A DNA stretch of 64,000 nucleotides from IMG/VR virus record IMGVR_UViG_3300009161_000021; one strand, given 5' to 3'. Of this stretch, positions 33,739-51,622 are shown piece by piece. Source of the DNA: a virus (taxonomy: Duplodnaviria > Caudoviricetes). Position numbers and translations under genes: made by a program. Under the pieces are notes generated by a model. It did no database searches. It was given only the letters and a program-made list of their open reading frames with translations, and was not told where the DNA came from. The first letter of the stretch is position 1; each line of letters opens with the position of its first letter.

Positions 33739-34036
33739 CTGATTCTCCTTTGTCGTCAATGTAAATGTCAGCGGAAGGCTTGCCAAGAATTAGATCATGA
33801 AATTTCACGCCCCAGTCGCTCAATTGCTTTCTTGTCAAATCTTCAAACATGCTTTTAACTTTCGAAACGTCGCCGCCAGTTCTTCCCATACCTCTAGCAG
33901 TGAATATTGTAATGTGATTTCCGGATTCGAAAAGCTCATTCACTTTTGATATTCTCTTAAGATTTGGAACTGCCAGAGCGTAGTTACCCTCAGTGTTGTT
34001 ACAAAGAGTTCCATCTAAATCAAAGACAATTCTCAT
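33716..34036 (-). CDS. Small HAD-like phosphatase (capsule-biosynthesis phosphatase type)
   Basis: FDLDGTLC, IFTARG, GKPSADIYIDDK. Confidence 0.85.
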   Translation of the reverse strand: MRIVFDLDGTLCNNTEGNYALAVPNLKRISKVNELFESGNHITIFTARGMGRTGGDVSKVKSMFEDLTRKQLSDWGVKFHDLILGKPSADIYIDDKGESDVNFFKE

Positions 34037-34409
34037 CAATTATCCTCGTACTTGAAAGATCTTTGATCCTATCAAAGAATTTTACGTCAACAATTTCGCT
34101 TCCGATCACTCTCTTATTTTGATAGTCCGAACCCACCACTATCAATTTAGCTCCTGACTCTTTGATCCTCTGGATCAACTCTTCATCGCTTGAGAAGCGA
34201 ACGACCTCATCAACAAACTTCAACGAGGAGATAACTTTCATCCTCTGCTGCAAGCAATGAATGGGTCTGTTTTCTCCTTTTGACTTTTTCACACGTTCGT
34301 CAGTGTCAAGACCTACAACAAGTCTGTCGCCCAGGCTGCGAGCGTATTGCAGCATTTCAACATGACCAGCGTGTATGAAATCAAAGCATCCGTTAGTCCA
34401 GACGGTCAT
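34020..34409 (-). CDS. Cytidylyltransferase-family nucleotidyltransferase (HldE/RfaE domain II-like)
   Basis: NGCFDFIHAGH (HxGH), GDRLVVGLDTD, KGENRPI, GSDY, LSSTRII; start likely the ATG at 34409. Confidence 0.85.
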   Translation of the reverse strand: MTVWTNGCFDFIHAGHVEMLQYARSLGDRLVVGLDTDERVKKSKGENRPIHCLQQRMKVISSLKFVDEVVRFSSDEELIQRIKESGAKLIVVGSDYQNKRVIGSEIVDVKFFDRIKDLSSTRIIDENCL

Positions 34410-35157
34410 TTGGCGTTGAGACTCCTCGCTTCTGAACGACTTTTGTTGCGCAATCATTAGCAAACTTTAAGCATTCTGGAAGATCTTTTCCTGCCAAAAT
34501 TTGAACTGCAAGAGCTGAGATAAACGTGTCACCCGCGCCCGCAACGTCCTTAACGCTTACGCTATCAACGCTGAATTTCTGACATTGAAAAATGCATCCG
34601 TCTTTCCCAAGGGTGACAATAAGCTTTTTCGAAAGTCTTTCGCTGATAACTGACTTTGTCTTAGAGTACTCGTCTCCGTTTATCTTAACGTATTTGACGT
34701 ACTCGCACCAGTCACCAAGAATCTTTTTGCTATCGAGGAGCACGACATTATTCCTGGACGATATCTTGATGATATCGCTTTCCAATAAAAAGCCCTTATT
34801 GTAATCTGACAGAATTACAACGTCATATTCTGAGACTTTCTCTAGCATCTCATCCGTGATTGCAATCCGACTGAATGCTTTATCATTGCAATCGACTCTA
34901 AGAAACATATGATTGGTTCTATCATCAATGTATCTGGTCTTTGTGATGCTTTCCCAATTTTCATTGGTCCAGATATCGCAATCCACTCCAAGAGAGTTCA
35001 CATTGCGCTTAACATTCATAGCCATCCCTGGATTCTCCGTCCTTGAAACTTCAAGGAACACAGGAGCAGGCGCTTCAGGTGCTAACCTGTTCGAGACTCC
35101 ATAGACAAAAATGTCCTGGCAAGATTCACCGACAACCAGAACTTTACGATTAGACAT
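34393..35157 (-). CDS. PfkB-family sugar kinase (HldE/RfaE domain I-like)
   Basis: VVGESCQD, RLAPEAPAPV, KTRY, SDYNKG, VTLGKDG, DVAGAGDTF. Confidence 0.85.
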   Translation of the reverse strand: MSNRKVLVVGESCQDIFVYGVSNRLAPEAPAPVFLEVSRTENPGMAMNVKRNVNSLGVDCDIWTNENWESITKTRYIDDRTNHMFLRVDCNDKAFSRIAITDEMLEKVSEYDVVILSDYNKGFLLESDIIKISSRNNVVLLDSKKILGDWCEYVKYVKINGDEYSKTKSVISERLSKKLIVTLGKDGCIFQCQKFSVDSVSVKDVAGAGDTFISALAVQILAGKDLPECLKFANDCATKVVQKRGVSTPNDRLD

Positions 35158-35160
35158 CAG

Positions 35161-36177
35161 TTACCTCACAATGAAATTTTCTTCGGAGGATACTCTATCT
35201 CTCCAATAGTTGAGCAGATCATTCATAGTTTTCTCAAAACTGATCTGCGGCTCCCATCCAGTATGGCTCTTGAACTTACGTGTGTCAGGTATCTGGAGAT
35301 CGGCGTCAATGGGTCGTAGCCTCTCAGGATCAACTTCAACTTTGATATCCTTTCGCGTTGAGATGCTAAGAAGATAATCAAGCGTCTGCCTTACCGTGCA
35401 AGTGTAAGAACCACCAATATTATAGTACTCACCAGCGATCGGATCCTTAGTCACAAGAGTATGATAAGCCCTAACAGCGTCTCTTACGTCTGACCATGTT
35501 CTAAGAGAATCAAGGTTACCAACTTTTAGAACAGGTGGAATCTTACCTGCCTCAATAAGAGCGATCTGCTTCGCAAATGATGACTCTGCAAAAACGTCAC
35601 CACGACGAGGACCAGTATGAGTGAACATCCTTGTTGTCATAACCTTCATACCGTAGGCTTCAGCGTAGAATCTACCGATAAGATCAGTCCCAACTTTGGA
35701 TATCGCGTAGGGAGAAGCAGGATGAAAATTAACATCCTCGTGAATCGGTAGCTTCTCAGCAGGAACTCTTCCAAACACCTCGGAGCTTGCGCAAACATGA
35801 ATCACGGTATTTTCGAGATTTGTCTTTGAAACTCTCACAGCTTCAAGCAACGCGCAAGTTCCCATGATGTTAGTCTGAAGCGTCTCCAGCGGAGAATCGA
35901 AACTCGTCTTCGGATAACTCTGGGCTGCCAGGTGAAAGATAAAGTCAGGTTGAACCTTATTCACAAGCGAGATCAAGCTTGCGAAATCATTCAGGTCGGC
36001 GTTATGAAGAAAGACACGATCTCTCTCGTTGATCCTACTTGCAAGATGATCGATGTTTTTCGTGCTATCAGCCCATCTCGTCATTCCATGAACATCCCAG
36101 TCGGTGTTCTCGAGAAGATGATCTGCCAGATGAGAACCGACCATGCCCGTTATTCCTGTAATCAATGCTCTTTTCAC
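35161..36177 (-). CDS. gmd: GDP-mannose 4,6-dehydratase (Gmd/Rmd family)
   Basis: ITGITGMVGSHLA, FHLAAQS, ASSEVFG, PASPYAISK, GNLDSLRTWSDVRD, RLRPID, W-x-P-x-x-SF; GTG start after GGAG. An Rmd-type reductase is not excluded. Confidence 0.75.
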   Translation of the reverse strand: MKRALITGITGMVGSHLADHLLENTDWDVHGMTRWADSTKNIDHLASRINERDRVFLHNADLNDFASLISLVNKVQPDFIFHLAAQSYPKTSFDSPLETLQTNIMGTCALLEAVRVSKTNLENTVIHVCASSEVFGRVPAEKLPIHEDVNFHPASPYAISKVGTDLIGRFYAEAYGMKVMTTRMFTHTGPRRGDVFAESSFAKQIALIEAGKIPPVLKVGNLDSLRTWSDVRDAVRAYHTLVTKDPIAGEYYNIGGSYTCTVRQTLDYLLSISTRKDIKVEVDPERLRPIDADLQIPDTRKFKSHTGWEPQISFEKTMNDLLNYWRDRVSSEENFIVR

Positions 36178-36189: not shown

Positions 36190-36921
36190 TCAGACAATTT
36201 TAGATGAATTTGGTGAATCGTAACGATCGAGCAACTCTCTCTTGGCAGTCCATCCAGGCCAGAATGGATCTCCTTCGTTGATATAAACGAAATACATCGT
36301 TCGACGCCAGCGGGTCGGATGCTGATTCTTATTCGCTTTGTGGATAAGATGACCGTGCACGCAGAGAACGTCTCCTTTCTCGTATTTTAGCTGAAGAACG
36401 GGGAGATCCTTTGGAATTTCACAGTTGTTTCCGATCGGAGCTGAATTATACAGCCTTCCTGATTCGTCAACAGAAAAGTTGGCTTTCGGATTACACGGCA
36501 GATCGCCCAGCTTGTGACTTCCAGGTATGATCATAAGAGAACCGTTCTCTTCGTCAGCGTCGTCAAGAGAAAGCGTTAAATTAAGGTAAGATCCGAACGG
36601 AGCTTTACCGGCGTAATTGTCCTGATGCCAGGTTGAACCGTTTTCCAAAGAGTTGTTAGGCTTGCAGAAGAAAAAGATGCTTCCTATTGGAATCGCTCGA
36701 TTCTTTAAGATGCTATCTCCGATATCACACATCTTCTTACCGGTATGAATCTTGCTAAAGACTTCATTCTTGTGCATATCAAGATAGTTCGTGTAGAAAC
36801 CATTTGCGTGTTTTTCTGACGCATCGATGGCTTCCTGACACTCTTCATCTGAAAAGACCTTCTTCAAATGAAGGTAACCGTTTTCTTTAAAGAAGCTGAT
36901 CTGTGAATCAGTGAGCTGCAT
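36190..36921 (-). CDS. Phytanoyl-CoA dioxygenase (PhyH)-family 2OG-Fe(II) oxygenase
   Basis: ENGYL, WHQD, LDDADEENGSLMIIPGSH, GDVLCVHGHLIH, RR. Confidence 0.85.
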   Translation of the reverse strand: MQLTDSQISFFKENGYLHLKKVFSDEECQEAIDASEKHANGFYTNYLDMHKNEVFSKIHTGKKMCDIGDSILKNRAIPIGSIFFFCKPNNSLENGSTWHQDNYAGKAPFGSYLNLTLSLDDADEENGSLMIIPGSHKLGDLPCNPKANFSVDESGRLYNSAPIGNNCEIPKDLPVLQLKYEKGDVLCVHGHLIHKANKNQHPTRWRRTMYFVYINEGDPFWPGWTAKRELLDRYDSPNSSKIV

Positions 36922-37886
36922 CAGCGTGCCACATTCTTCCTATACCACAGCAACGTTTTGATGATACCCTCATCAAGAGAATGAGACGGAGACCAGCCAA
37001 GTACTCTCTTAGCTTTAGAGCAATCGAGGAAAAGAGAGGTAGGTATCGTGGGCTGTGACAGATCGTGAACAATCTGAAGGTCTCGGCCTGAGTGATCGAC
37101 AATCTTTCGAACGAGATCCTTTATCTTGATCCCTTCTCCCAAGCCAACGTTAAACAGCTCGAACTTGCTCTCCTGCTTGTCAATTGCATCATTGACAAAT
37201 CCAACAAGATCTTCAACAAAAAGAAGATCCCGAGCTTCCTCGCCAGTCCCCCAAACGTTAATCTTGCCATCCGCAGACGTCATGACCTTGGTCACCGTTG
37301 CTCCAAACACATGTGACTTCTCAAGATCATACTTGTCATGAGGACCGTACATGTTGGAGTGACGAATGACGGTGTGCTTTGTCGACCCAATTCGTGAGTA
37401 AAACTCGCACATCTTCTCAAGATAAACTTTCGTGTTTCCTGCTCCGAAATAGAACGGAAGAATTTCGTCGGAAGGATTGAAGTCATCTTCCTTTATCGCA
37501 GTTTCAGACTTCTGATACATGATAGTGCAGCTAGGGAACACAAAATGCTCGATCTTCTTCTCGAATGCTTCCCTAAGAAGAAGAGAGTTCATAACAGCGT
37601 TGTCTGTTACGTGTATGTAGGGCTTTGAGACGATGTCCCTCGCTCCCGTTGTGGTAGCTGCAAACTGCAGAACAATATCAACTCCAGACAGAGCGCTTGA
37701 AACGTGTTCAGGATTTCTTAGATCGCAGTTGATCCACTCGACCCCATCGTAACCTTCAACTGCAGGTCTGCGAAAGTGAGTGGCTCTTATGTTGTACTTT
37801 CCCTGCTTATAATAGAAATCAAGCAGATTTCTTCCAATAAACCCAGTCGCGCCGCAAATCAGTATCTTCTTCTTATTTTCTACCAT
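36921..37886 (-). CDS. Extended SDR, GDP-fucose synthase (Fcl/ColC)-like epimerase/reductase
   Basis: GATGFIG, NMYGPHDKYDLEKSHV, VWGTGEEARDLLFVED, NVGLG; the catalytic motif is atypical (AGNTK). Confidence 0.75.
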   Translation of the reverse strand: MVENKKKILICGATGFIGRNLLDFYYKQGKYNIRATHFRRPAVEGYDGVEWINCDLRNPEHVSSALSGVDIVLQFAATTTGARDIVSKPYIHVTDNAVMNSLLLREAFEKKIEHFVFPSCTIMYQKSETAIKEDDFNPSDEILPFYFGAGNTKVYLEKMCEFYSRIGSTKHTVIRHSNMYGPHDKYDLEKSHVFGATVTKVMTSADGKINVWGTGEEARDLLFVEDLVGFVNDAIDKQESKFELFNVGLGEGIKIKDLVRKIVDHSGRDLQIVHDLSQPTIPTSLFLDCSKAKRVLGWSPSHSLDEGIIKTLLWYRKNVAR

Positions 37887-38451
37887 CTAGAATGAGCTCC
37901 CGATCTCTTTTTACGAATGAATCATACACTCTGTCTATCACGAAGTTTATGTCCATTGCGTTTTGTCTGTCGGGAGTAGTTTTTATGTTTGTAGGGTAGA
38001 CATCGAGAACGTTCAAATTGTTGTTCTCTGACTTTAAGCTTTGCGAAAATCCTCTTAAACCCCACTTGGTAGCTGAGTACAGGGTCCTATTAGCTTTGAT
38101 CTCAAGCCCGACCATAGAGTTGATGTTAATCACGTCCGATAGGTTTGGAAGAAGCTCATATGTCAAGACTACCGGAGCCGTAAGATTAACGGCAATCATG
38201 CTCTGAATCTCTGAGAGATTGTAATCTTCTAATTTCTTTCCTGGGCATGTGATTGCAGCGTTGTTTACAAGAATTTTGACTCCCTGCGAACGAGCTTCAC
38301 GTGCTAAAGACTCGACCTCTTCTATTTTGGAGAGATCGAAATGCTTCCGTCCTTCATGACGAAAAACTTCATGACCCTCTCTTTCGAATTTTGAAGAAAG
38401 GTAAACTCCAAGACCTGAGCTAGCTCCGGTTATAAAAACTTTTGATTTCAT
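37873..38451 (-). CDS. Classical short-chain dehydrogenase/reductase
   Basis: ITGASSGLG, LVNNAA, NINS, YSATK. Confidence 0.9.
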   Translation of the reverse strand: MKSKVFITGASSGLGVYLSSKFEREGHEVFRHEGRKHFDLSKIEEVESLAREARSQGVKILVNNAAITCPGKKLEDYNLSEIQSMIAVNLTAPVVLTYELLPNLSDVININSMVGLEIKANRTLYSATKWGLRGFSQSLKSENNNLNVLDVYPTNIKTTPDRQNAMDINFVIDRVYDSFVKRDRELILDGRK

Positions 38452-40221: not shown

Positions 40222-41190
40222 TCACTTTCTCATTGACTTGAAAGCGTCAACGCTGCTATTGGCAACATTCTGATTCTTGACGTACCATTCGACCGTTTCT
40301 TTAATTCCATCTTCGATTGAGATCTTTGGAAAGAATCCAAGAGAATGAGCTCTAGTCATGTCAAAAACTCGACGAGCATCACCGGTCGGCTTTGTTGTGT
40401 CCCAGACAACTTCAACGCCAGCGATATTAGCGACAGCATCAGCAACCTGCTTTATTGTCACTCCGTCGCCAGACCCAAGGTTGACAGGCTGAGTTATCTT
40501 ATTCTCGACAACAAAAAGCATTCCCTCTGCAACGTCTCGAGCGTGAATGAAGTCTCTAACGGCCGAACCGTCTCCCCACACTTCCATCTTGTCACCCGAA
40601 AATGCCTTCCTGATCAGCGAAGGAACAACCATCGAGCTGTCAGGGTCAAAGTTGTCGTAAGGACCGTAGACGTTAGCAGGACGAACGATGCTGCACTTTC
40701 CTGCTCCGTACTGCTTCTCGTAAGCCTGACACTGAAGCTCTCCCATCCTCTTTGCCCAACCGCCGAACCAATCATTTCTAGACGGTTGAGTCTGCCAAAC
40801 GTCGTCCTCACGAAGTACCTCTGCGGGCTGATACACGCCGACGGTGCTAGTGTACAGGTACCAGTCAACTCCTTCATTCATCGCAGCTTCAAGCATATTC
40901 GTGTTGAACTGCATCATAGGGCCCATGATATCAGCAGGTCTCTCTAAACAAACTTTTGGAGAGCACTTGATACCAACAAGATTGAAGACGTAGTTCATGC
41001 CCTTAACGATTTTCTTGCAATCAGAAAAATCTCGAAGATCCGCTCTAACAAACTCGATGTTGCTCATATCGACCGGGTCCTTGATATCAGCAACCCTTAC
41101 TTTCGCACCACGCTTCTGAAGGAGTGAGACAAGCTCTCTCCCAATCATGCCGCTACCACCAGTCACCAGTACATTCTTGTTCTCAAACAT
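40222..41190 (-). CDS. Extended SDR, Fcl/ColC or GDP-mannose epimerase-like
   Basis: VTGGSGMIG, VRPANVYGPYDNF, WGDGSAVRDFIHARD, NLGSG; the catalytic motif is atypical (GGWAK). Confidence 0.8.
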   Translation of the reverse strand: MFENKNVLVTGGSGMIGRELVSLLQKRGAKVRVADIKDPVDMSNIEFVRADLRDFSDCKKIVKGMNYVFNLVGIKCSPKVCLERPADIMGPMMQFNTNMLEAAMNEGVDWYLYTSTVGVYQPAEVLREDDVWQTQPSRNDWFGGWAKRMGELQCQAYEKQYGAGKCSIVRPANVYGPYDNFDPDSSMVVPSLIRKAFSGDKMEVWGDGSAVRDFIHARDVAEGMLFVVENKITQPVNLGSGDGVTIKQVADAVANIAGVEVVWDTTKPTGDARRVFDMTRAHSLGFFPKISIEDGIKETVEWYVKNQNVANSSVDAFKSMRK

Positions 41191-42361
41191 TAGAGATCCT
41201 CTTGTTTAAAGCTTCACAAAGCGTCTTGACCCTGCTTGGGTTGACTTCACAGTGATTTCCGATGTATAAACCGAAATCATGGATGTGATCAACATTTTCC
41301 ATGGGTCCTTCGATCCTATGAGAATAATTCTCAAGATACGGTTGACGAGCTTGATTACCGCCGCCTGCCGTTCCTTTTCGATATTCTACTCCAAGAGACT
41401 CTAGAGTTCTGCAGATAGCGTGGAATTTTTCGCTGCTTTTTTCTCTAAGAATCAAAGGAAGAGAAAAATTGCTGCTGCCGGATCTATCAAAATCTGTGAA
41501 GAAATGATCCGAATCCAGATTGTCAAGCCAAGCATTTAAGTTCTCTGTCCTTGCTTGAATCGCATCATCCAGTCTCTCCAGCTGCTCGAGACCGATTACT
41601 GCATTGATCTCAGTTCCTCTCATGTTGAATCCTGGAACTGCAAAGGTGAAGAGTGGATTTAAGCTGGGGTACTTCTGGGAAAAATGAGACTTTATCTCCT
41701 CACTAGAATCTCTTATCATCCCGTGGGATCGATAAAGCTTGGCCAGATGATAGAGCTCAGTGTTGTCCGTGCAAATCATCCCCCCCTCTATCGTAGTCAT
41801 GTGATGACCAAAATAGAAAGAGAAGTTTGACATATCACCAATTGTTCCGACCTTTCTTTCATTAAAAGTCGCGCCGTGTGACTCACAGCAATCCTCGATA
41901 AGCATCAAGTTATGCTCTTTAGCAATTTCTACGATCTTTTCATTGATGCCGTTGAAACCAAGGGTGTGAACGAGAACAATCGCGCGCGTCTTGTCAGTTA
42001 TTGCAGCTCTTATTCCATCCTCAGTAATTGCCATATTCTCCATAGAGACATCGACAAAAACAGGAGTCATTCCGAAATTAACAACCGGCGCAATGTCAGA
42101 GACCCATCCAAGAGGCGGAACGATAATTTCTCCGTTACCGCACTTATCTCGAATGATGGCAGTCATGATGTAGTTGGCAGAAGCTCCTGAGTTAACAAAA
42201 ACGCTATGCTTCACGCCGAGCCACTTCGACCACTTGATCTCGAACTCTTCTACTTTTGCTCCCTGGGTAAGGCGAACATTTGGCTCTGAAAGAAACTTGA
42301 TCAATGCGAGCTTGTCAGCTTCAGTCACGTTATCGTTGATCAACGGCCAAGAGTAATTCAT
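41183..42361 (-). CDS. colD: DegT/DnrJ-family PLP enzyme, ColD-type GDP-4-keto-6-deoxymannose 3-dehydratase
   Basis: VNSGASAN, EDCCESHGA, SFYFGHHMTTIEGG with His in place of the Schiff-base Lys; no visible [2Fe-2S] Cys motif of RfbH/E1. Confidence 0.7.
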   Translation of the reverse strand: MNYSWPLINDNVTEADKLALIKFLSEPNVRLTQGAKVEEFEIKWSKWLGVKHSVFVNSGASANYIMTAIIRDKCGNGEIIVPPLGWVSDIAPVVNFGMTPVFVDVSMENMAITEDGIRAAITDKTRAIVLVHTLGFNGINEKIVEIAKEHNLMLIEDCCESHGATFNERKVGTIGDMSNFSFYFGHHMTTIEGGMICTDNTELYHLAKLYRSHGMIRDSSEEIKSHFSQKYPSLNPLFTFAVPGFNMRGTEINAVIGLEQLERLDDAIQARTENLNAWLDNLDSDHFFTDFDRSGSSNFSLPLILREKSSEKFHAICRTLESLGVEYRKGTAGGGNQARQPYLENYSHRIEGPMENVDHIHDFGLYIGNHCEVNPSRVKTLCEALNKRISNV

Positions 42362-42843
42362 TATTTGTCCCTCAACTGTAGTATTGGATTTTCGCTAGGC
42401 CAATCTATCGCTATTCTACTGTCGTTCCATCTTAAAGTGAATTGATCTGCAACGTCAGGGTACTTTCCTTCATATGACCACTTGTAATAGAAAACAGATT
42501 GCTCGCTTAGAGTGTAGAAGCCGTTTCCGAATCTGGGAGGAACGAGAACCATTCTCTTGTTGTGCTCAGAAAGTATTGTCCAATCCCATTGCAAATATGT
42601 TTCTGATTCGGGTCGATTGTCAACAACCACAAAATAGACTTCTCCGTGAAGACAAGTTATCAGCTTCGTTGATTTATTGTCTCCATGAATTCCACGAAGA
42701 ACATTCTTTCTAGAAGAAGAGACTTTGTCATGATTGAAGTTAACCCCAGGACAAGTCTCTCCTTGCTTCCACAGTGTCCACAAATCGCCTCTGTAATCAG
42801 AATGAAAATCAGGATTTATTACCTTGACTTCTTTGAACTTCAT
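42361..42843 (-). CDS. rmlC: dTDP-4-dehydrorhamnose 3,5-epimerase (RmlC) family
   Basis: DYRG, SSRKNVLRGIH, GEVYFVVVDNR, VPPRFGNGF, FYYK, IDWP. Confidence 0.85.
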   Translation of the reverse strand: MKFKEVKVINPDFHSDYRGDLWTLWKQGETCPGVNFNHDKVSSSRKNVLRGIHGDNKSTKLITCLHGEVYFVVVDNRPESETYLQWDWTILSEHNKRMVLVPPRFGNGFYTLSEQSVFYYKWSYEGKYPDVADQFTLRWNDSRIAIDWPSENPILQLRDK

Positions 42844-43745
42844 GATCTCAGAACCGAAAGAGACTTCTCAACAATTCTTTCACAATTCGGAGGAAATACG
42901 TCAACGTCCGGGTGGAAACCTGCTGTTCTGTTCTCAATGCAAAGAGTGTGAACATCTTTCTTTGAGCTTAACATTAGCTGATGCGCGAGGCTTGAAGCCA
43001 CCCCCTGCTCATAGTCATCATCAAGAACTATCCCACCATACTTTGATCGTAGCAAAGCTTCAATTGACTTTTCCTTTGAGGAAAAGGGCTTAATCCACAT
43101 CTGGTGGACAATATTCACTTTGTAGCCCAATTTCTCAAGAGCAGCTCTAGCTTCTTCAGCTGCGAATCGAGTGACTGAAATTGGGAGAAGCGTAATGTCT
43201 GCATCCTCATGAATGAAATCTTCCAGCTCTCGAGTGTTGTCATAACTCTTTCTATGCTCGGAAACGTAATAAGGAACATCATCATTCATGAAGCTCTCAT
43301 ACACGCTCTCGTACTCATTCGGAGTCATAGGAGCAGCGATCTTAAGACCAGGCATCCTATCATACAGAGAATGATGGGAAGAACCAGCTACGGGTCCGAC
43401 TCCACCTTCCATGGCGATGCTTCTTACGAAGATTGGGCAAGGAATTCCCCAAATATCGTTTGACTTTGCAGCGTAGTTGATAATAGACGGAGCGTTGTAC
43501 CACTGAAAGCCTTGATATCGAACAACGTAGATCGGTCTTTCTCCAGCTAATGCGATTCCTGTGGCTATCGCTCCGCCAGCAACATCGGCCATAGAAAACT
43601 CGACCATTCCGTCTTCTTCATAAAGCTCAGGCAAAGTTCCACCCACCCAACCAACTGCAGTGAGGCACTGCCCGAAGCATCTACCACCCTTCTCAAGGTG
43701 TGAACGAGTCAAGCTCTTTATCGTCTCTCTAACCGTTCTTGCCAT
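42840..43745 (-). CDS. ThDP-dependent dehydrogenase E1 beta / transketolase-like subunit
   Basis: GIALAGERP, GPVAGSSH, PGLKIAAP, PYYVSEH, IKPF. Confidence 0.85.
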   Translation of the reverse strand: MARTVRETIKSLTRSHLEKGGRCFGQCLTAVGWVGGTLPELYEEDGMVEFSMADVAGGAIATGIALAGERPIYVVRYQGFQWYNAPSIINYAAKSNDIWGIPCPIFVRSIAMEGGVGPVAGSSHHSLYDRMPGLKIAAPMTPNEYESVYESFMNDDVPYYVSEHRKSYDNTRELEDFIHEDADITLLPISVTRFAAEEARAALEKLGYKVNIVHQMWIKPFSSKEKSIEALLRSKYGGIVLDDDYEQGVASSLAHQLMLSSKKDVHTLCIENRTAGFHPDVDVFPPNCERIVEKSLSVLRS

Positions 43746-44551
43746 ATTTTTTCAACCCTTTGCTTGGTCTGTTGATCAATCTCTCTTGCAGAGTCACCGA
43801 TAATTGACATTTCATTTTCGTATCTATCGAAAATGCTATCATCGTCAATTCCAGCGCCAGCATGCCAGAACTTTCTGTGAGTATTCACGTTTAAAAGCAT
43901 TGGACCATCAAACGCTCCTTCCAATGCATCTTTAATTGTCATCGGATCATCGTCAATGTTCATGCCTTTCATGCCAAAAGACATGGCAACATCGTGCATT
44001 TCCCATGACCTTCTAATCTTTTTCTCAGTGAGAATTGAGAGATTGTTGTCTTCAACGATGAAAAGAATTGGAAGCTTCTTAGTTGCAGCCCAGCCAAGAG
44101 CTCCAAGAGCGTAGTCTTCCTCGGCAGATGCATCTCCCATGAAAACAACGGTGGGGTTCTTCGTTGAATAGCAGTGACCCACCGCTATTGGAACCTGGCT
44201 TCCCATCAGACCGTCATGTCCGAATATCTTCTTTTCTCTGGATTGTATGGAGGCTGAGCCTCCCATCCCATTAGAACAACCAGTCTTAAGACCCAAGAGC
44301 TCATCCGCCAGTTGCTCAATTGGAGCGTCAAAAGACAGATACGTTGAATGACCACGGTGCTGTATGAATATGTTGGGTTCGATTCTCTTTTGAGAGAGAA
44401 CCTCGGACAATGTTGAAGCAGTGTATTCCTGCCCAGCTGACAGATAAATTGGAAATTTGAAAGTCCCTGCTCGGATTAAGTCAAAAACTTTCTTCTCAAA
44501 ATTTCTGCAGAGAGAAGCTCTTCTAAATACGTTCAGTCTAAAATCACTCAT
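43718..44551 (-). CDS. ThDP-dependent dehydrogenase E1 alpha-like subunit
   Basis: YLSAGQE, HRGH, GMGGS, MGSQVPIAVG, GDAS...EDNN ThDP-binding motif. Confidence 0.88.
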   Translation of the reverse strand: MSDFRLNVFRRASLCRNFEKKVFDLIRAGTFKFPIYLSAGQEYTASTLSEVLSQKRIEPNIFIQHRGHSTYLSFDAPIEQLADELLGLKTGCSNGMGGSASIQSREKKIFGHDGLMGSQVPIAVGHCYSTKNPTVVFMGDASAEEDYALGALGWAATKKLPILFIVEDNNLSILTEKKIRRSWEMHDVAMSFGMKGMNIDDDPMTIKDALEGAFDGPMLLNVNTHRKFWHAGAGIDDDSIFDRYENEMSIIGDSAREIDQQTKQRVEKIWQERLERR

Positions 44552-44936
44552 GATTTTCCTCGATGTATCTCATTGTGCTCTCCCAGCTTTCAAATCTATA
44601 ACCTTTATCGTCAATGTACAGCTGGGCACGTGGCTTCTCGCTCGTTATCTCACGAATGCAAGACAGGACACCATGCTTGTCAAGCCACTCTGAAACAAGC
44701 TGATGTCCTGTCTTTCCGTCGACAAGCGGTCTATTCGGCTTCGCTTTTGCGGTGAAGATTACGATATTGAATCTCTTTGAGAGACTTCTCAAAGCGTCAA
44801 GAGAACCTGGTAAAGGATCTCCGTAGCATGTTCCATCATGCCACCCTTTACTAAAATCGTGAATCACACCATCAAAATCAATAGCGATGTTATCTACTTC
44901 ACTCTCAAACCCAGGAGGAACTTCCTTCTCTTTCAT
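44544..44936 (-). CDS. HAD-superfamily phosphatase
   Basis: IDFDGVIH, IFTA, KPRAQLYIDDK. Confidence 0.85.
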   Translation of the reverse strand: MKEKEVPPGFESEVDNIAIDFDGVIHDFSKGWHDGTCYGDPLPGSLDALRSLSKRFNIVIFTAKAKPNRPLVDGKTGHQLVSEWLDKHGVLSCIREITSEKPRAQLYIDDKGYRFESWESTMRYIEENHE

Positions 44937-45601
44937 TACTCACCTTCGTGAGTCAATACTATTGTTCCTTCTTCGATTTTATCAAACACTTCAAGCAAAC
45001 GATGAAGCACATTGCTCGAGACAATGTCACCAGGACTGGCCACTGCGACTCCGTACTCGGTCAAAAGACCACCCTTCAAGAACATTACATTTGACGAACT
45101 TGAGGCTTCTTTAAGATCATCAATTGTTTTTATTCCAAGAACTTTGATCACTTGCCCATCAAAGTTATAGATTTCGCTTTTTCCTGGTTCTGGCTCTTTT
45201 ATCCAAAGACACTCTGACTCTTTGGGGTACTCGTATGACTCGTCCTCGTAAGGCTGGCCGGTTCTGCCGTAACTGTCACGGAGCCTTACGAGATCATGCT
45301 TGTCAACAGGTGTCTCAATCTCAAAGAGAGATAGATGTCCATGATGAGCTCTTGTCGAGTGGAAAAGACCCTTGCGAATCATGATCTTTTCAGAATTTGA
45401 GAGTTTAACGGAGTCAGCTAAAAATGATACTTCGGCTTGACCAGCGACGACCATCAGCCCCGTCGTCTTGTTCGGATGACAGTGCATGGAAGTTTGCTGG
45501 TCACGAAGAATCTTTAAAAACCATAGAGCTACTTTATCGTTCTCATATGCGAGATACTCGTAGCCCCATGGCTTCTTAACTACGTTACTCTTGTAATTCA
45601 T
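44936..45601 (-). CDS. Cupin-domain protein (M6P isomerase-like) with a C-terminal extension
   Basis: KPWGYEY, TSMHCHPNK, FHST, FEIETP. Confidence 0.75.
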   Translation of the reverse strand: MNYKSNVVKKPWGYEYLAYENDKVALWFLKILRDQQTSMHCHPNKTTGLMVVAGQAEVSFLADSVKLSNSEKIMIRKGLFHSTRAHHGHLSLFEIETPVDKHDLVRLRDSYGRTGQPYEDESYEYPKESECLWIKEPEPGKSEIYNFDGQVIKVLGIKTIDDLKEASSSSNVMFLKGGLLTEYGVAVASPGDIVSSNVLHRLLEVFDKIEEGTIVLTHEGE

Positions 45602-46128
45602 TTGACTAGATCAATCGCTCGCTTCATCCAAGGTCCCATGTGCTTGTAATGAGGCGAAGTTACGATGTTATCGGAAACTACGGCTGCAGCATCGACATAA
45701 CGAGCGCCAGCATTCTCAATATCATCCTTGATGCTGTAGTAACCAGAGATGTCGCGGCCCTTAACGATCTTTGCAGAAATCAACAGCTGAGCACCGTGAC
45801 AAATGCAGGCAATGACCTTGCCACGACGATTCCACTCAGCAATGAAATCGAGGACATTCTTCTCCTGACGAAGATACTCAAGTGCCTTGACACCGCCTGG
45901 AATAACGAGCATATCGTACTCGAGCAACCGATCATGGATCTCTGGATTATCGAGATCCGTCGTTAGATGAGTTCCGTTCATGTAGGTCCCGAGGATTCCG
46001 TAGAAACGACCCCTCTTGTTTGACATAATCTCAACCTCATAATCGTCCTCAGTCAAACGATAATAAGGGTAGATGACCTCATGGTCCTGATAACCTTCGT
46101 GAGTTAGAAGAATAGCTTTCTTTGACAT
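45598..46128 (-). CDS. DJ-1/PfpI family protein
   Basis: DHEVIYPY, YDMLVIPGG, ACICHGAQLL, NIVTS; the start is the ATG at 46128, overlapping the upstream TAA. Confidence 0.9.
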   Translation of the reverse strand: MSKKAILLTHEGYQDHEVIYPYYRLTEDDYEVEIMSNKRGRFYGILGTYMNGTHLTTDLDNPEIHDRLLEYDMLVIPGGVKALEYLRQEKNVLDFIAEWNRRGKVIACICHGAQLLISAKIVKGRDISGYYSIKDDIENAGARYVDAAAVVSDNIVTSPHYKHMGPWMKRAIDLVK

Positions 46129-46529
46129 TACCAACTTACCTCCCAATCTTTGAAATCTGCAGCAAGACAATCAATCTTGTAATCCTTTCGACCACCCACA
46201 GCTTCCTGTATCTTGTTCTTCGCTGTGTTTCTGATCCCATTCAGTCCATGGGTCAGCTCAAGGTTATTGCCATCCTTGATGCCCTTTCGATAGTTAGACT
46301 CGTTATGCCAGATGTGAAGATTCATCTGAGAAAGAACCACAATGGCTCTTACCGTGTCGGCGGTGATCTTACCATCGTTGCTGTCAAGGCACTCTTGGAT
46401 ATCATGACAGATGTCTCTGATCTCCTGAGAGTATTCGTCCTTATGATCCGTGATGAAAACCTCTTTCAGCTGTGTGATAGAAAGACGATCTATCAGCTCA
46501 GCGAAAGTTGGCAAATACTTTCTACTCAT
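46128..46529 (-). CDS. Hypothetical helical protein, 133 aa
   Basis: Coupled to both neighbours; plausible globular sequence (ELIDRLSI...IWHNE...NGIRNTAKNKI). Confidence 0.75.
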   Translation of the reverse strand: MSRKYLPTFAELIDRLSITQLKEVFITDHKDEYSQEIRDICHDIQECLDSNDGKITADTVRAIVVLSQMNLHIWHNESNYRKGIKDGNNLELTHGLNGIRNTAKNKIQEAVGGRKDYKIDCLAADFKDWEVSW

Positions 46530-47256
46530 TGTTTTCCTCTATGAATTTGATCAATTTTAGACGATCTTCATTGCGTTTTGCAACAAGCTCAGGAGTATTG
46601 TAAAGAAAGTGCCCATTTTGTTTATCAGCCAAAGCTCTAGTCTTCAAATGAGTCTCATCCTTCTCCATTTTACCAGCTTCAACGTGCATGTGCTCTAGGA
46701 AAAGATGCTCTCTATTAGGTACGAAAATTCCTCGTCCTATCGAAACAGCGATTTCCTGATTCCACTTGTCGGTCCAGTCGGCAACAAAGTAGGGAGGATT
46801 AACGTACCCAAGAGCTTTGACCCAGTTTCTGTGGACAAAAGTGTGAGAAGCAAGCTCTCCGTTCCACAGACCATCATCTGACCAAAGAAGAATTATCTTA
46901 TCTTTGAAAAGACCAAAAGCTTCACGAGCGACAACATCCCAGTTCTGGGATCTGAAAACAACGTCATCGGCAACGTTCGCAACGATATCACCCTTTGCGA
47001 TGGAGAAGCAAAGATTTGCAAAATTGCTCATCTTCTCGCCGGGCTCAAATAGCTTCACTGCTATTCTTTCGTCTCCAAATCGAAGCTTGAGTTCGTCAGC
47101 AACTTCAAGCGCAGCTGTGTCGTTGTTGTCGATTCCAAAAACAATTTCCATCATTGACGGATCAGAGCAATTCTTGAAAACAAACTCTGCAAAACGTCTC
47201 TGCAGCTCTGGTCTCTTGTGGGTCGGACAAAGAACACTAATAAACTCTTTACTCAT
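46522..47256 (-). CDS. GT-A fold glycosyltransferase (GT2-like)
   Basis: ISVLCPT, GIDNND, KGDIV, VADD, F-x-x-DWTD, LEHMH. Confidence 0.75.
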   Translation of the reverse strand: MSKEFISVLCPTHKRPELQRRFAEFVFKNCSDPSMMEIVFGIDNNDTAALEVADELKLRFGDERIAVKLFEPGEKMSNFANLCFSIAKGDIVANVADDVVFRSQNWDVVAREAFGLFKDKIILLWSDDGLWNGELASHTFVHRNWVKALGYVNPPYFVADWTDKWNQEIAVSIGRGIFVPNREHLFLEHMHVEAGKMEKDETHLKTRALADKQNGHFLYNTPELVAKRNEDRLKLIKFIEENNE

Positions 47257-49018
47257 TCATCACGCTCTTGATTGTGTTATAGATCTGTTCGTCAGTGTTC
47301 CAGAAGCTCTTCTTGACAATCTCAAAATTTTCTTTGATGTAATCCATACGAGAATAGTAATCATCTTCCGTCAGATTTTCGAGGATACTGTCAAGTTCTT
47401 CTAAAGAATTAAAGTGAATGATTCCTCTTTCATTGAAATGTTCATTCACTTTCTGGCTGCCCCAGAAAATTGGAACTGTCCCAGTTATCATAGAATCCGC
47501 TATTTTTGCGAACCAAGTATCCATCTTTACGTTCTCAATCACAATGGAGAACATGTAATCTTTTAGAGCATTAACAGCACCATGAACTGGGAATGGGTTA
47601 TAACCGCTTCCCCAAAGATCTATCCCGTGCTTTTCAGATAGCTTTTTTGCGATCTCATGACGAAGAGCGTGACCCTCCGTTATGATCTTGTTGCTTGCTA
47701 TCATAGAAACTCTCTTGCTCTTATTATGAATTTTCCACTCTTCTTCTTTAATTCTAACGTGAGAGAGGGGCATGAGACGGCAATTTTTGTACTTGTCGAT
47801 CAACCTCTGATCGAACGTGAAGACATAATCAAAGTCTTCAATCATTCCGATCAGATTCTGGTAAGCGAAACCATGAATTTCAGGAGGCTCCATGATCCAG
47901 GCTATCTTGGTCTTACAATCGATAGAATTTACAAATTCTTTGTTAATGAAGTGATCTGTGAAAATTGTAATTCCAGAATAGTCTCTAAAGCTTTGATGAT
48001 ACGGTTGATATATGATCTTCTTTGTACGAGGGATAGGTTCTCCATTCGCAGAGACAAACCCGTAGTCCGGCAAGTTTACCGTATGGATAAAATGCTTGTC
48101 AAAAAGATTGACAATCATCGGTTGCTCTACCCCCGCGTAAGCAGGATCAGGCTTCTCGTACATCCTATAAAACTCTCGCCAGTTTGAGGGAGAAGCCTCA
48201 TGCGGCGGCATGTATTTCGGATGAAAGCTGAATCCACCTAAATCATAGAAATGAGGAACAGGTTGAGGCCCTCCCCACATTCCCCACTGAAGCTGACTTT
48301 CTGTGTAAAATCCCTTCATTAGCAGGTCAATTATTGCCTCAAATGACAGTCCAAGAACGTTCACTCTGCCTGGGCACTGCCTCGAGACCGAACCCTTATT
48401 GACCCATCTCGAGGGAACTTTTTCGAAAGTCGGGTCAGCGGTTCCATAAACTTCTTCTTTGAAAGTTGACGAAAGGTAGCTGCCGTCAATCTCAAAGTTC
48501 CATGGAGACCAATCATGCTCAAGGAACTTGAGCAGGTAATCTTTTCTCCACAGAGCTGGTTGAGTGCTGATTCTGTAGAGAGCTCCCTTGTCTATTGAGA
48601 TTATACCGTATCCGTCCCTCATCTCAACGAGCTTATGGGAGCAGTAATTAAATGCATCGTAGCTAAGGCAAAATCTTCCGATGTTACTGTTATCTTTCAT
48701 CTTTTCTACGATAACAGAGAACATCTGCTCATCAAGCGAGCAGCATGGGAAAAAATCATCCAGCGAGAAGATCAAAAATTCGTCAGTCACACTATTGACG
48801 TACTCAGCGATATATCTCGTCCACTTCTTAGATCCTCCCTCTTGCTTCGGAGCAATCGAGATGAACCTGTGATTTTCTGGAAGAGTGTAGCTTGGATGAG
48901 AGAACCCGATAAAATCGATCTCATGACCAGGCCAGTACTTCTCGAACAGATAAGAGGTGACCCTTACGGCGTCTAGAGTTTCATCGCATAGCGGTATAAT
49001 GTGCCTGATTTTTGTCAT
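47249..49018 (-). CDS. Two-domain glycosyltransferase: N-terminal GT-A-like plus C-terminal GT10 (fucosyltransferase)-like
   Basis: N-terminal LDDFF, YRISTQPALW and SPWNFE; C-terminal SMIASNK, GHALRHEI and YMFSIVIEN...KIAD...GTVPIFWG. Confidence 0.7.
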   Translation of the reverse strand: MTKIRHIIPLCDETLDAVRVTSYLFEKYWPGHEIDFIGFSHPSYTLPENHRFISIAPKQEGGSKKWTRYIAEYVNSVTDEFLIFSLDDFFPCCSLDEQMFSVIVEKMKDNSNIGRFCLSYDAFNYCSHKLVEMRDGYGIISIDKGALYRISTQPALWRKDYLLKFLEHDWSPWNFEIDGSYLSSTFKEEVYGTADPTFEKVPSRWVNKGSVSRQCPGRVNVLGLSFEAIIDLLMKGFYTESQLQWGMWGGPQPVPHFYDLGGFSFHPKYMPPHEASPSNWREFYRMYEKPDPAYAGVEQPMIVNLFDKHFIHTVNLPDYGFVSANGEPIPRTKKIIYQPYHQSFRDYSGITIFTDHFINKEFVNSIDCKTKIAWIMEPPEIHGFAYQNLIGMIEDFDYVFTFDQRLIDKYKNCRLMPLSHVRIKEEEWKIHNKSKRVSMIASNKIITEGHALRHEIAKKLSEKHGIDLWGSGYNPFPVHGAVNALKDYMFSIVIENVKMDTWFAKIADSMITGTVPIFWGSQKVNEHFNERGIIHFNSLEELDSILENLTEDDYYSRMDYIKENFEIVKKSFWNTDEQIYNTIKSVMNE

Positions 49019-49872
49019 TAGATCAGTTCCATGATTTCTTGCAAAGTGAATCTCTCAACATCGTTTGAGCTTGGACCCTGCTCGAGTATCTTCTCGTGAA
49101 GATTCTCTCCTTGCTGGAGACCGATCGTCTTGACGTCTATCGTAGTACCAGCTTTAGCGTACTTCTTGATCATCGCATCAAGAAGATCTCCAACACTCAT
49201 CGCTTTCATCTCAGGAACCCAAGGACTGGAATTCTTGGCCTCTCTTAAGCACTGAAAGATCAGATCGATGGCTTGCTCTCGAGTCCAGAAAAAACGAGTT
49301 GCAGTGGGCTCCGTTACTATTACCTGTTCACCATTCTGGATCTTATCCTTCCACTTACAAAGCACCGAACCAGTAGAGTAGAGGACGTTTCCATACCGGA
49401 CGATTCGGTACTTAGTGTCAGGATTTAGCTCTTCAAACTGAAGGAAAAGTCTTTCCATGAGAAGCTTTGTAGCTCCGTAGGTTCCAGAGACTTGGGCCGC
49501 CTTATCAGTGCTAATTCCAATCACAAAATCAAACTTATTCCGCAAAGACTCATTGAGAATGTTGATAGTTCCGACAACATTGCTTCTAGTGCACTCAAGA
49601 CCGTGCTTCTCAGCCATCCCAACATGCTTGTAAGCAGCTAAATGGTAAACCGCGTTGACTCCCTTGCACGCTTGATGCGAGTCAAATTCATTCGCGATAT
49701 CACCGGTAAAAATTTCGATGCTTGGGAATCGCTCCTTGAGCATAATGAGCTTTCCCTCGTTTCTTGAGATAATTCTCACTCTATCTCCTTGAGAAAGGAG
49801 CTTCTCAACTAACTTTTCGCCAAGAAAACCGGTTCCGCCAGTGACTAAAATAAGCTTCTGGTCTTTTTGCAT
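49018..49872 (-). CDS. UDP-GlcNAc 4,6-dehydratase (PseB/FlaA1/CapD family)
   Basis: VTGGTGFLG, HLAAYKHV, STDKA, YGATK, RYGNV-x-x-STGSV, TRFF; ATG at 49872 after AAGGAG. Confidence 0.85.
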   Translation of the reverse strand: MQKDQKLILVTGGTGFLGEKLVEKLLSQGDRVRIISRNEGKLIMLKERFPSIEIFTGDIANEFDSHQACKGVNAVYHLAAYKHVGMAEKHGLECTRSNVVGTINILNESLRNKFDFVIGISTDKAAQVSGTYGATKLLMERLFLQFEELNPDTKYRIVRYGNVLYSTGSVLCKWKDKIQNGEQVIVTEPTATRFFWTREQAIDLIFQCLREAKNSSPWVPEMKAMSVGDLLDAMIKKYAKAGTTIDVKTIGLQQGENLHEKILEQGPSSNDVERFTLQEIMELI

Positions 49873-49950
49873 GCTTCTCCTTTGTTTGGATATTTTCATT
49901 CAACTCTACAACGACAAAGCTGGTTGTTCCGTTGTTTTGCTGATTATCTC

Positions 49951-50709
49951 TCAGATCTTATCGTACGGCTTCCTTGATCTGATCAGAGCCTCATTCGAGA
50001 GCTGCTCATTTCTTGAGCTCAGATGCTCGGCTGCGGGATTCATGCGATTGTAGCAAAGAAGAATGTTCGGTATGAAGCAAGATCTCTCCCTTGCCATCTC
50101 GATCAGAGGAAACATGATCGCTAGATCGCAGCTTGCCATAAAGTAATTGCCGTTGTTGTCTTTGAAATCCTCATCTCTAATCTTTGACCACAGATGGGAC
50201 TTGTACGTCCTTAGATGCGACGTGCTCCACTGAGCCTTTCTGTAATTGCCGCTGAGATGAAGGCTAGGGTCGATTGGTGTGCTAAACTTTCCAACCTCTC
50301 CAAAGGGCCACTCAACGTAACTTCCCCACGTAACCAGACATCCAGTTGATCTGTAAGCATAATCTAAGATGTGAAGGACTGCGGGGCTATAGAGCCAGTC
50401 ATCTCCGTCCAGGTTGATGAGAACAGCTTCAGGAAAGCTTTCACAAGATTGCATCTTGTATCCTTCGATAAAGTTTCTCATTATTCCAAGACGTGAGCTG
50501 TTTCTTTTCATAAGAAACTTTTTCGAGAGATCAGGTCCAAGAAGATTGATGTAGGAAACTATTTTTTCCCATGTGTCATCGGTCGATGCATCATCGATCA
50601 CAGCGCAGGTCCAGTCTCCTTCATACTGCTGACTTGCAACCGAGTCAAGGCATCTCTGTATCCAGGGACCTGCATTTCTCACCGGGACAGTTATCATGAA
50701 CCGAGTCAA
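49951..50709 (-). CDS. Glycosyltransferase family 2
   Basis: ITVPVRNAGPWIQRCLDSV, IDDASTD, LDGDDWL, D-x-A; the likely start is the TTG at 50709, overlapping the upstream TGA. Confidence 0.9.
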   Translation of the reverse strand: MTRFMITVPVRNAGPWIQRCLDSVASQQYEGDWTCAVIDDASTDDTWEKIVSYINLLGPDLSKKFLMKRNSSRLGIMRNFIEGYKMQSCESFPEAVLINLDGDDWLYSPAVLHILDYAYRSTGCLVTWGSYVEWPFGEVGKFSTPIDPSLHLSGNYRKAQWSTSHLRTYKSHLWSKIRDEDFKDNNGNYFMASCDLAIMFPLIEMARERSCFIPNILLCYNRMNPAAEHLSSRNEQLSNEALIRSRKPYDKI

Positions 50710-51617: not shown

Positions 51618-51622
51618 GAACA

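Follow-up and report, generated by a model that had tools for sequence, protein, structure and literature searches.

A phage-borne E1alpha/E1beta pair of thiamine diphosphate enzymes within a predicted NDP-heptose pathway, with a proposed role in sugar C-branching

We analysed a 64,000-nt stretch of phage DNA from the IMG/VR record IMGVR_UViG_3300009161_000021 (hereafter the window) and focused on a pair of genes for E1-type thiamine diphosphate (ThDP) enzyme subunits and their neighbours at positions 40222-44551. The long open reading frames (ORFs) of the window all lie on the minus strand, to which the window coordinates below refer, and are tightly packed. The locus comprises five overlapping genes coding, in order, for a short E1alpha-type ThDP subunit (43718..44551, 277 amino acids (aa); PF00676 E1_dh, 67.7 bits, plus a partial TPP_enzyme_C match), an E1beta-type subunit (42840..43745, 301 aa; PF02779 Transket_pyr, 50.2 bits, and PF02780 Transketolase_C, 26.9 bits), a cupin C3/C5 epimerase of the GDP-4-keto-heptose type (42361..42843, 160 aa; dTDP_sugar_isom, 134 bits), a ColD-type 3-dehydratase dependent on pyridoxal or pyridoxamine phosphate (PLP/PMP) (41183..42361, 392 aa; DegT_DnrJ_EryC1, 232 bits) and an Fcl-like extended short-chain dehydrogenase/reductase (SDR) (40222..41190, 322 aa; Epimerase, 161 bits). 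Successive genes overlap by 28, 4, 1 and 8 nt. Coordinates and Pfam matches agree with the contiguous, overlapping order E1alpha-E1beta-RmlC-ColD-SDR given in an earlier reading of the sequence (the original prediction). Baseplate-wedge proteins (phrog_219, phrog_261), PhoH and a GroEL-like protein encoded in the window identify the replicon, by its gene content, as a phage.

The two subunits share approximately 25-30% identity with solved E1 structures. Both are shorter than canonical E1, and the beta subunit is devoid of an insertion of approximately 20 residues. E1alpha harbors the ThDP/Mg motif GDA-x26-NN (G139-D140-A141 ... D168-N169-N170), in which G, D and N169 are invariant among 104 sequences, and a conserved His230, the counterpart of the active-site His in the human E1alpha motif YHGHS. 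In E1beta, Asp54 occupies the position of the canonical cofactor-activating Glu in 104/104 family members. In this column 'sMADva' is aligned to 'pLAEsg' of Geobacillus stearothermophilus E1beta, and the canonical references and both sugar-linked outgroups have DTPxxE where the E1beta proteins of the family have ExxxxD. An invariant Asp in place of the activating Glu of E1beta is a new feature of the cassette. As the remaining cofactor site (GDA-x26-NN, His230) is conserved, we read the pair as a predicted active, though mechanistically distinct, ThDP clade. Their homology, the overlap of their genes and the existence of natural alpha-beta fusions (P0128, P0162) suggest that E1alpha and E1beta form a heteromer.

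The pair scores far below the cut-offs of the NCBIfam equivalogs for pyruvate dehydrogenase (PDH), with 110 bits against 394 for TIGR03182 and 52 against 321 for NF006667. A HMMER scan of 1.84 billion representatives delimited a discrete family of short E1alpha proteins (approximately 270-300 aa; 61 clusters at E<1e-30, mostly at 150-280 bits), beyond which the scores fall to approximately 105 bits, corresponding to canonical E1alpha of 315-330 aa. We built a maximum-likelihood tree of E1alpha with three E2-linked references, PdhA of Sinorhizobium meliloti, PdhA of Streptomyces and AcoA of Acinetobacter, and with otherwise metagenomic outgroups. The short E1alpha proteins form one clade (SH-aLRT 100%; stem length 1.23 substitutions per site) to which none of the three E2-linked references belongs, so that the phylogeny proposed earlier as a check places the alpha subunit outside PDH and acetoin dehydrogenase. 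The two nearest non-family E1alpha proteins examined, P0204 and P0207, are both encoded in NDP-sugar clusters without E2, and in one of the two clusters a YerE/ErwE-type ThDP enzyme is encoded as well, accompanied by aldolase and dehydrogenase genes. With three E2 sequences and one E3 sequence as queries, tblastn gave no match in the window, as noted in the original prediction, nor in 118 related and outgroup loci, and the domains PF00198 (2-oxoacid_dh) and PF00364 (Biotin_lipoyl) were not found in five related IMG/VR phage records, including a complete one of 173 kb. A plasmid search (PLSDB) yielded only canonical E1alpha proteins with <30% identity, which served as labelled references and not as relatives. 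The separate clade, the low scores and the lack of E2, E3 and lipoyl partners in the window, the 118 loci and the five phage records thus make the claim that the pair is not part of a metabolic PDH well supported at the sequence level.

More than 2,500 E1alpha homologues were found in public data and metagenomes, and the best 120 all have at least 69% identity, many of them from the ocean, with Tara among the metagenomes represented. When one genome was scanned for each GTDB species, 175 loci were identified. The bacterial carriers include Pelagibacteraceae (many single amplified genomes, SAGs), SAR116, OM43-like Betaproteobacteria and small-genome marine Gammaproteobacteria, as well as Nitrospira, Omnitrophota, Bdellovibrionales, Terriglobia, Colwellia and others. 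Among viruses, E1alpha is present at 44-76% identity on 24 IMG/VR contigs of up to 318 kb. A terminase was found in four of the five such records tested, one of which, 173 kb long and with direct terminal repeats, has a completeness rating of 100%; the uncultured carrier phages range from 110 to 320 kb. A blastn search of 50,697 deposited phage records with the 4.3-kb stretch gave no match, and tblastn with E1alpha against the same records returned only PDH/AcoA-like genes of approximately 25% identity, in bacterial-looking records, and no member of the family.

For 107 loci, on phage contigs or in bacterial genomes, we clustered the ORFs up to 7 kb away from E1alpha. E1beta is a neighbor in 102/107 loci, followed by the 221-aa bicupin (80/107), the PfpI/DJ-1 protein (75/107), an extended SDR (69/107), the ColD-like, His-type DegT protein (57/107) and a GHMP kinase (45/107). 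Three clusters of B12-binding radical-SAM enzymes are present in 38, 16 and 12 of the 107 loci, a PhyH dioxygenase in 26, an NTP_transferase in 18, a HAD phosphatase in 15 and a SIS isomerase in 11. The recurrence of E1alpha-E1beta with the same neighbors in these loci shows that the arrangement is not due to chance. The clade is always embedded in nucleotide-sugar clusters, in bacteria as well, and individual loci with Pfam annotation agree with this. In five genomes that seemingly had no ColD-like gene near the pair, a His-type DegT gene was found in 5/5, four times in or adjoining the cluster and once on another contig; the link of the pair to 3-deoxygenation is strong. Cellular loci commonly contain the GDP-heptose set (GHMP kinase, NTP_transferase, SIS, HAD), and hence the pair is not needed for building the precursor. 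The cassette with PfpI, bicupin and HAD genes, often also with B12-radical-SAM genes, is abundant in marine bacteria and uncultured jumbo phages.

Within the E1alpha tree, a marine proteobacterial clade encloses the phage sequences. Their sisters come from gammaproteobacterial and 'Rickettsiales' assemblies of small genomes (1.0-1.6 Mb) that have the same gene order, and in GTDB contigs labelled Thiothrix/Gammaproteobacteria (L031, L033, L034, L038) the cassette shows 57-63% identity and includes the phage-type small phosphatase. We considered that the 'Thiothrix'-labelled SAG contigs might be phage contigs; no terminase was detected in those five genomes, and they were treated as cellular. 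Small marine bacteria with sister cassettes are possible hosts or gene donors, and the tree suggests that genes were exchanged with such bacteria and perhaps also bears on the host range. Two other gene arrangements were observed. In the Nitrospira variant (L084, L086, L094, L099-L101, L114), PfpI and bicupin are absent, and the order is ColD-like protein, two SDRs, GHMP kinase, NTP_transferase, classical SDR, class I/II aminotransferase, E1alpha and E1beta, followed by two B12-radical-SAM enzymes and a glycosyltransferase/methyltransferase protein of >2,000 aa. In the metagenome contig ERZ24794600 (L117, 600-13800), one cluster combines an E1alpha/beta pair that has no E2 with a YerE/ErwE-type ThDP enzyme and also includes an SDR, HpcH and DmpG aldolases, an acetaldehyde dehydrogenase, HldE, two SDRs and a TylCIII-type C-methyltransferase. 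The YerE/ErwE-type enzyme, the SDR, the two aldolases and the acetaldehyde dehydrogenase correspond to the erwiniose gene set (PMC9306805), and the contig could contain two different ThDP branching systems in one heptose cluster.

Three genes immediately upstream of the pair are conserved with it in both phages and bacteria. The cassette starts with a PfpI/YhbO-type protein of the DJ-1 family (45598..46170; PF01965, 123 bits), whose gene lies just upstream of the bicupin gene; this protein has an ICHG nucleophile elbow with a conserved Cys124, and it scores 134.7 bits with TIGR01382 (PfpI) and 105 bits with the PH1704/PfpI structures. The bicupin (44936..45601; weak PF01050 match, with PF01050/Cupin_2 clusters as Atlas neighbors) is modelled by AlphaFold2 as two beta-barrels with a pLDDT of 93.2. 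Its N-terminal barrel carries a phosphomannose isomerase (PMI)-type motif, KPWG ... TSxHCHPxK ... H81, E94, E96, of invariant residues, and probably binds a metal. Foldseek retrieved generic bicupins (oxalate decarboxylase, quercetinase) and single cupins including PMI and KdgF, which does not fix its function. The third gene codes for a small HAD/PNKP-type phosphatase of 130 aa akin to a 'capsule biosynthesis phosphatase' (44544..44936; weak PF06941 NT5C match, with PNKP/HAD capsule phosphatase clusters as Atlas neighbors). It is found in 30 loci, 22 of them viral, and a full-length HAD_2 protein is encoded beside E1alpha in 15 cellular loci. PfpI, bicupin and HAD phosphatase would belong to the same unit as the pair, with donor supply as one possibility. 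The conservation of the trio implies that the donor need not be pyruvate, and it suggests either the supply of a non-pyruvate donor or chemistry at the level of sugar phosphates.

The ColD-like protein aligns with Escherichia coli O55 ColD (2gms) at 200 bits and with the CDP-sugar 3-dehydrase E1 (3bcx) at 168 bits, and it scores 235 bits with the RfbH model. Its FSFYFGHHMTT sequence is aligned with His188 of ColD, such that His186 replaces the Schiff-base Lys; this His is kept in 58/59 orthologues. The assignment as a ColD-type 3-dehydratase thus holds. The gene originally called Gmd is present downstream of the locus (35161..36177; PF16363, 273 bits), as is the classical SDR gene mentioned with it (37873..38451). 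However, the product of the former matches the Campylobacter jejuni GDP-D-glycero-D-manno-heptose 4,6-dehydratase 7us5 at 363 bits (E 1e-107), compared with approximately 160 bits for GDP-mannose 4,6-dehydratases, and it scores 194 bits with the gmd equivalog, whose cut-off is 415. Similarly, the 'RmlC' protein is a cupin epimerase as predicted, but it is closest to the C. jejuni GDP-D-glycero-4-keto-D-lyxo-heptose 3,5-epimerase 8db5 (177.5 bits, versus 92 for RmlC 1dzr); its gene is found in 24/28 viral-type loci and in only 3 cellular loci. As both enzymes are closest to C. jejuni GDP-heptose enzymes, the sugar scaffold is most likely an NDP-heptose rather than GDP-mannose. With a heptose scaffold, a C2 branch would give a nonose. 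The yersiniose-like octose derived from GDP-mannose is therefore not retained, whereas a pathway to a C-branched 3,6-dideoxysugar is still plausible once it is recast with a heptose scaffold and an enzyme of the alphaKADH2 type, the E1-like sugar-branching group that includes AviB1/AviB2 and Plm8/Plm9.

The activation genes of the window code for a split HldE, with a heptose-7-phosphate kinase part (34393-35157; rfaE_dom_I, 135.8 bits; Pfam PfkB) and a heptose-1-phosphate nucleotidyltransferase (34020-34463; rfaE_dom_II, 126 bits; Pfam CTP_transf_like), and not for the HddA/HddC set of GDP-alpha-heptose synthesis; cellular relatives carry a GHMP kinase and an NTP_transferase. Together with a small HAD-IIIA phosphatase of 107 aa (33716-34039; EcbF-BcbF phosphatase, 39 bits), the split HldE is predicted to supply NDP-heptose. 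A small cupin is also encoded beside these genes, within 33373-35157. We found no GmhA (SIS) isomerase in the window; it might be replaced by the PMI-like bicupin (44936-45601) or by the small cupin, or heptose-7-phosphate might come from the host.

The Fcl-like SDR matches the E. coli GDP-fucose synthetase at 133 bits and has an intact GxxGxxG motif. It lacks the epimerase residues Cys109 and His179 of Fcl, and it keeps the Thr and Lys of the triad with Phe142 where Fcl has the catalytic Tyr136. Its orthologues have Tyr (17) or Phe (13) at this position, and D140, W145, K147 and R148 are invariant. The 'reductase' of the original prediction is thus an extended SDR, albeit atypical in its catalytic residues, and it may belong to an atypical SDR subfamily. 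The missing Tyr would fit the conversion of C4 to a tertiary alcohol, as a pathway of that kind needs no C4 reductase. Other SDRs of the locus could serve as C4-reductase. The classical SDR (PF00106, 91.6 bits; intact Ser/YxxxK triad) retains its TGxxxGxG, NNAA and YSATK motifs and comes after the SDR in other loci as well, both phage and cellular ('adh'), making it a candidate ketoreductase of the branch carbonyl in a YerF/Pau-type role. A second extended SDR of the GalE/Fcl type (36921..37886; PF01370, 114 bits) has an intact NAD(P) motif and UDP-glucose 4-epimerase as its best PDB match (91 bits), and a PhyH-type 2-oxoglutarate/Fe(II) dioxygenase (36190..36921; PF05721, 82.5 bits) is likely a sugar hydroxylase. 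We also considered a plain colitose pathway (Gmd-ColD-ColC) and rejected it, since a heptose-type dehydratase and epimerase are encoded and the catalytic residues of ColC/Fcl are missing from the Fcl-like protein.

We give slightly better than even credence to the proposal that the pair works outside any 2-oxoacid dehydrogenase complex, as a heteromeric ThDP enzyme of the alphaKADH2 kind that is responsible for late-stage C4-branching in a phage NDP-heptose pathway. Late-stage branching at C4 is favored by the alphaKADH2-like architecture, the lack of E2/E3, the co-operonic enzymes that would make the acceptor and the intact classical SDR encoded downstream. By homology, the split HldE and the small phosphatase would generate NDP-D-glycero-D-manno-heptose, which the 4,6-dehydratase would convert to the 6-deoxy-4-keto-heptose. 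The ColD-type enzyme would then strip the C3 hydroxyl to yield NDP-3,6-dideoxy-4-keto-heptose, and the cupin epimerase would adjust C5 or C3. In the steps that we infer beyond these, the ThDP pair would decarboxylate a 2-oxo acid (pyruvate by default, on precedent, with hydroxypyruvate or another acid as possible donors) and add the resulting acyl-anion equivalent to the C4 carbonyl, as YerE and alphaKADH2 enzymes do, giving a tertiary alcohol with a C-acyl branch. The classical SDR would reduce the branch carbonyl, and the PhyH oxygenase here, or B12-radical-SAM enzymes in related loci, would decorate the sugar further. The product would be a C4-branched 3,6-dideoxy-heptose of nine carbons that nearby glycosyltransferases would transfer to virion proteins or to the host envelope.

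Several points weigh against this proposal. The replacement of Glu by Asp means that catalysis by the pair may differ, and the clade is very divergent (stem length 1.23; 25-30% identical to any E1). The likeness to the AviB, Plm, Alm and KbDH enzymes of the alphaKADH2 group is one of architecture and gene context. Activation genes of the HldE type, as for ADP-beta-heptose, are combined with a dehydratase and an epimerase resembling those for GDP-alpha-heptose, which leaves the nucleotide uncertain. The position of the branch (C4 or C3) and the donor are guesses, and the carboligation, the product and the glycan are only inferred for the clade. Lastly, the tightly linked PfpI, bicupin and HAD phosphatase have no role in a simple branching model, and the presence of a PMI-like cupin and a phosphatase hints at sugar-phosphate chemistry.

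Alternatively, the pair may perform ThDP chemistry on the sugar pathway other than acetyl-branching at C4 of the 3,6-dideoxy-4-keto intermediate, which we regard as rather unlikely; the conserved trio, without a role in the simple model, speaks in its favor. The bicupin might keto-isomerise the sugar so that the branch is placed at C3, an acyl group that is longer or hydroxylated and made with the help of PfpI, HAD phosphatase and bicupin might be transferred, or the step might be a decarboxylation or C-C cleavage. The alphaKADH2 enzymes branch at C3 or C4, although those studied to date use only C2 donors (PMC12247030), and ErwE and MyGE take long functionalised 2-oxo acids and refuse pyruvate (PMC9306805); the Asp-for-Glu replacement likewise marks a functionally distinct clade. 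Nevertheless, a 3-deoxy intermediate offers no C3 carbonyl to attack, and no aldolase or other donor-building enzyme was seen adjoining the pair in the window.

The PMI-motif cupin and the HAD phosphatase gene immediately upstream could also mean that the pair acts early, in the manner of the homologous transketolase and DXS, to build an unusual ketose phosphate from sugar phosphates. The PMI-like bicupin would then isomerise this product, a kinase and the HAD phosphatase would process it and a nucleotidyltransferase would activate it, following the logic of the lincosamide octose. The co-occurrence of kinases and nucleotidyltransferases in most loci and the lack of a GmhA (SIS) isomerase in the window are in keeping with such a route. 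However, many cellular loci hold most or all of GmhA/HddA/GmhB/HddC, so that an extra precursor route is unneeded, and pyruvate as donor would yield a 1-deoxy-ketose, from which no aldose can be formed by a PMI-type isomerase. Moreover, the consistent partner of the pair is the His-type 3-dehydratase, which acts on nucleotide sugars, and the nearest outgroup pairs lie among NDP-sugar tailoring genes. We consider an early-stage role improbable.

The loss of the cofactor-activating Glu raises the question of a catalytically dead pair that would serve as a pseudoenzyme scaffold for the sugar enzymes. This appears very unlikely, because the ThDP/Mg motif and many pocket residues are invariant in >100 sequences from several phyla and phages, the substitution is to a conservative, invariant Asp unlike random decay, and >2,500 intact homologues are present in metagenomes. 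Least probable of all, and barely worth retaining, is a metabolic E1 (PDH, branched-chain 2-oxoacid dehydrogenase or acetoin dehydrogenase) that would use the E2/E3 of the host as an auxiliary metabolic gene for central carbon flow: PDH E1alpha and E1beta are the best named models and the active-site His of the YHGHS motif is retained, but this is outweighed by the scores far under the equivalog cut-offs, the separate clade, the lack of E2, E3 or lipoyl domains in the 118 loci and related phage records, the location of the pair always inside sugar operons, bacteria included, the shorter subunits and the replaced catalytic Glu.

More glycan genes are found in the same co-oriented block, at 26108-33330 and 46522-51623. 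They code for a UDP-galactopyranose mutase (30340-31437), two GT4-like transferases, a UDP-glucose dehydrogenase-like protein, a PseB-like 4,6-dehydratase (49018-49899), a 589-aa protein with a GT10 fucosyltransferase-like C terminus and three GT2 proteins, one with a weak match. No Wzx, Wzy or initiating transferase was recognised in this block, which is bordered by baseplate genes on one side and by large unassigned proteins on the other. This position suggests that the block serves protein (virion) glycosylation. A PD-(D/E)XK/Cas4-like exonuclease gene (29553-30425; PF12705, 83 bits) is found amid the sugar genes. A 133-aa protein without a Pfam match (46128-46529) is the best conserved of the region, with approximately 80% identity across 20-22 phage-type loci; it is missing from all cellular loci compared, and its Atlas neighbors are viral DUF6165/DUF4254-like clusters.

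Going beyond late-stage C4-branching in this phage, we tentatively propose, at somewhat less than even confidence, that PfpI, bicupin, HAD phosphatase and the Asp-type E1alpha/beta pair make up an unrecognised, widespread cassette for a C-branched sugar of nine carbons, or more where B12-radical-SAM methylases are present. Its donor would possibly be other than pyruvate. The product would serve as a decoration of SAR11-type and other marine bacteria, and their jumbo phages, equipped with the complete pathway, would use it for virion glycosylation or for remodelling of the host surface. If true, the cassette would extend E1-type branching chemistry to heptose-based surface glycans, and it occurs in some of the most abundant bacteria of the ocean (Pelagibacteraceae, SAR116, small-genome Gammaproteobacteria). 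A ThDP enzyme that naturally has Asp where an activating Glu is near-universal is of mechanistic interest, and also of biocatalytic interest since the proposed products are tertiary alcohols. For phage biology, it presents a virus in which a long rare-sugar pathway adjoins fibre and baseplate genes. The pair merits experimental work because it occurs in phages and ocean bacteria, because the cassette is abundant and because Asp replaces Glu in the active site.

E1-type sugar-branching enzymes are already known from actinomycete antibiotic pathways. To our knowledge, E1-type ThDP enzymes for sugar C-branching are known only from such clusters, and for Gram-negative surfaces, C-branched sugars have until now been ascribed to enzymes of the YerE type. 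In the literature we found nothing relevant on a phage-encoded version of this chemistry or on heptose-linked E1 pairs. With the E1 components of pyruvate, branched-chain 2-oxoacid and acetoin dehydrogenases, the window pair shares the fold, the ThDP motif and the alpha/beta organisation. In contrast with them, it has no E2, E3 or lipoyl partner, forms a separate clade, has an Asp in the beta subunit and is shorter.

The closest parallel for the sugar backbone is the GDP-3,6-dideoxy-heptose route of C. jejuni HS:5/HS:11 (Ghosh, Xiang and Raushel 2023), in which four enzymes, a 4,6-dehydratase, a PLP-dependent C3-dehydratase, a C5 epimerase and a C4 reductase, act on the nucleotide sugar (PMC10440746). 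This route and that of GDP-colitose (Gmd, ColD, ColC) resemble the window operon in the 4,6-dehydratase, the ColD-type His dehydratase, the cupin C3/C5 epimerase and the Fcl-like SDR, and the 3,6-dideoxy-heptose part of the cassette is a new member of a known pathway. The operon differs from both by its additional ThDP pair, PfpI, bicupin and phosphatase and by an Fcl-like SDR without the Tyr, and from the C. jejuni route by activation genes of the HldE rather than the HddA/HddC type.

The YerE/ErwE systems for yersiniose and erwiniose follow the same logic, i.e., a 4,6-dehydratase, a PMP-dependent 3-dehydratase, ThDP carboligation on a 3,6-dideoxy-4-keto sugar and reduction of the branch by an SDR. 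YerE and ErwE are single-chain flavoenzymes of the acetolactate synthase type (PF02776/PF00205/PF02775) whose acceptor is derived from CDP-glucose, in the case of YerE CDP-3,6-dideoxy-4-keto-glucose (PMC9306805). In contrast, the window alpha subunit has only a partial TPP_enzyme_C match, and its architecture is of the E1 type and not the N/M/C single chain of YerE.

The ThDP precedents invoked in the original prediction, YerE and AviB1/AviB2, are real, and they form part of a broader set to which the alphaKADH2 group adds Plm8/Plm9, the aldgamycin enzyme and KbDH (PMC4802897, PMC12247030). The heterodimeric E1-type Plm8/Plm9 enzyme of paulomycose formation transfers a C2 unit from pyruvate onto an NDP-keto-sugar, in a report that also cites AviB1/AviB2 and kosinostatin (PMC4802897), and EvdU5/EvdS3 have been proposed for eurekanate (PMC10338323). 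A review of alphaKADH2 enzymes describes knock-out and feeding evidence for aldgamycin, approximately 120 gene clusters and the in vitro carboligation of ketones, with keto-sugar analogues, by KbDH-alpha/beta (PMC12247030). Like AviB1/AviB2, Plm8/Plm9, AlmDI/DII, EvdU5/EvdS3 and KbDH-alpha/beta, the window pair consists of E1alpha and E1beta subunits without E2/E3, encoded inside an NDP-deoxysugar cluster near enzymes that produce keto-sugars, followed by ketoreductases and tailoring enzymes. The alphaKADH2 enzymes belong to the secondary metabolism of actinomycetes and act on dTDP-hexose or UDP-pentose scaffolds, whereas the window pair has a Gram-negative, marine, phage surface-glycan context and a predicted heptose scaffold. 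It is further distinguished by its shorter subunits, the Asp in place of the activating Glu and its conserved PfpI, bicupin and HAD partners.

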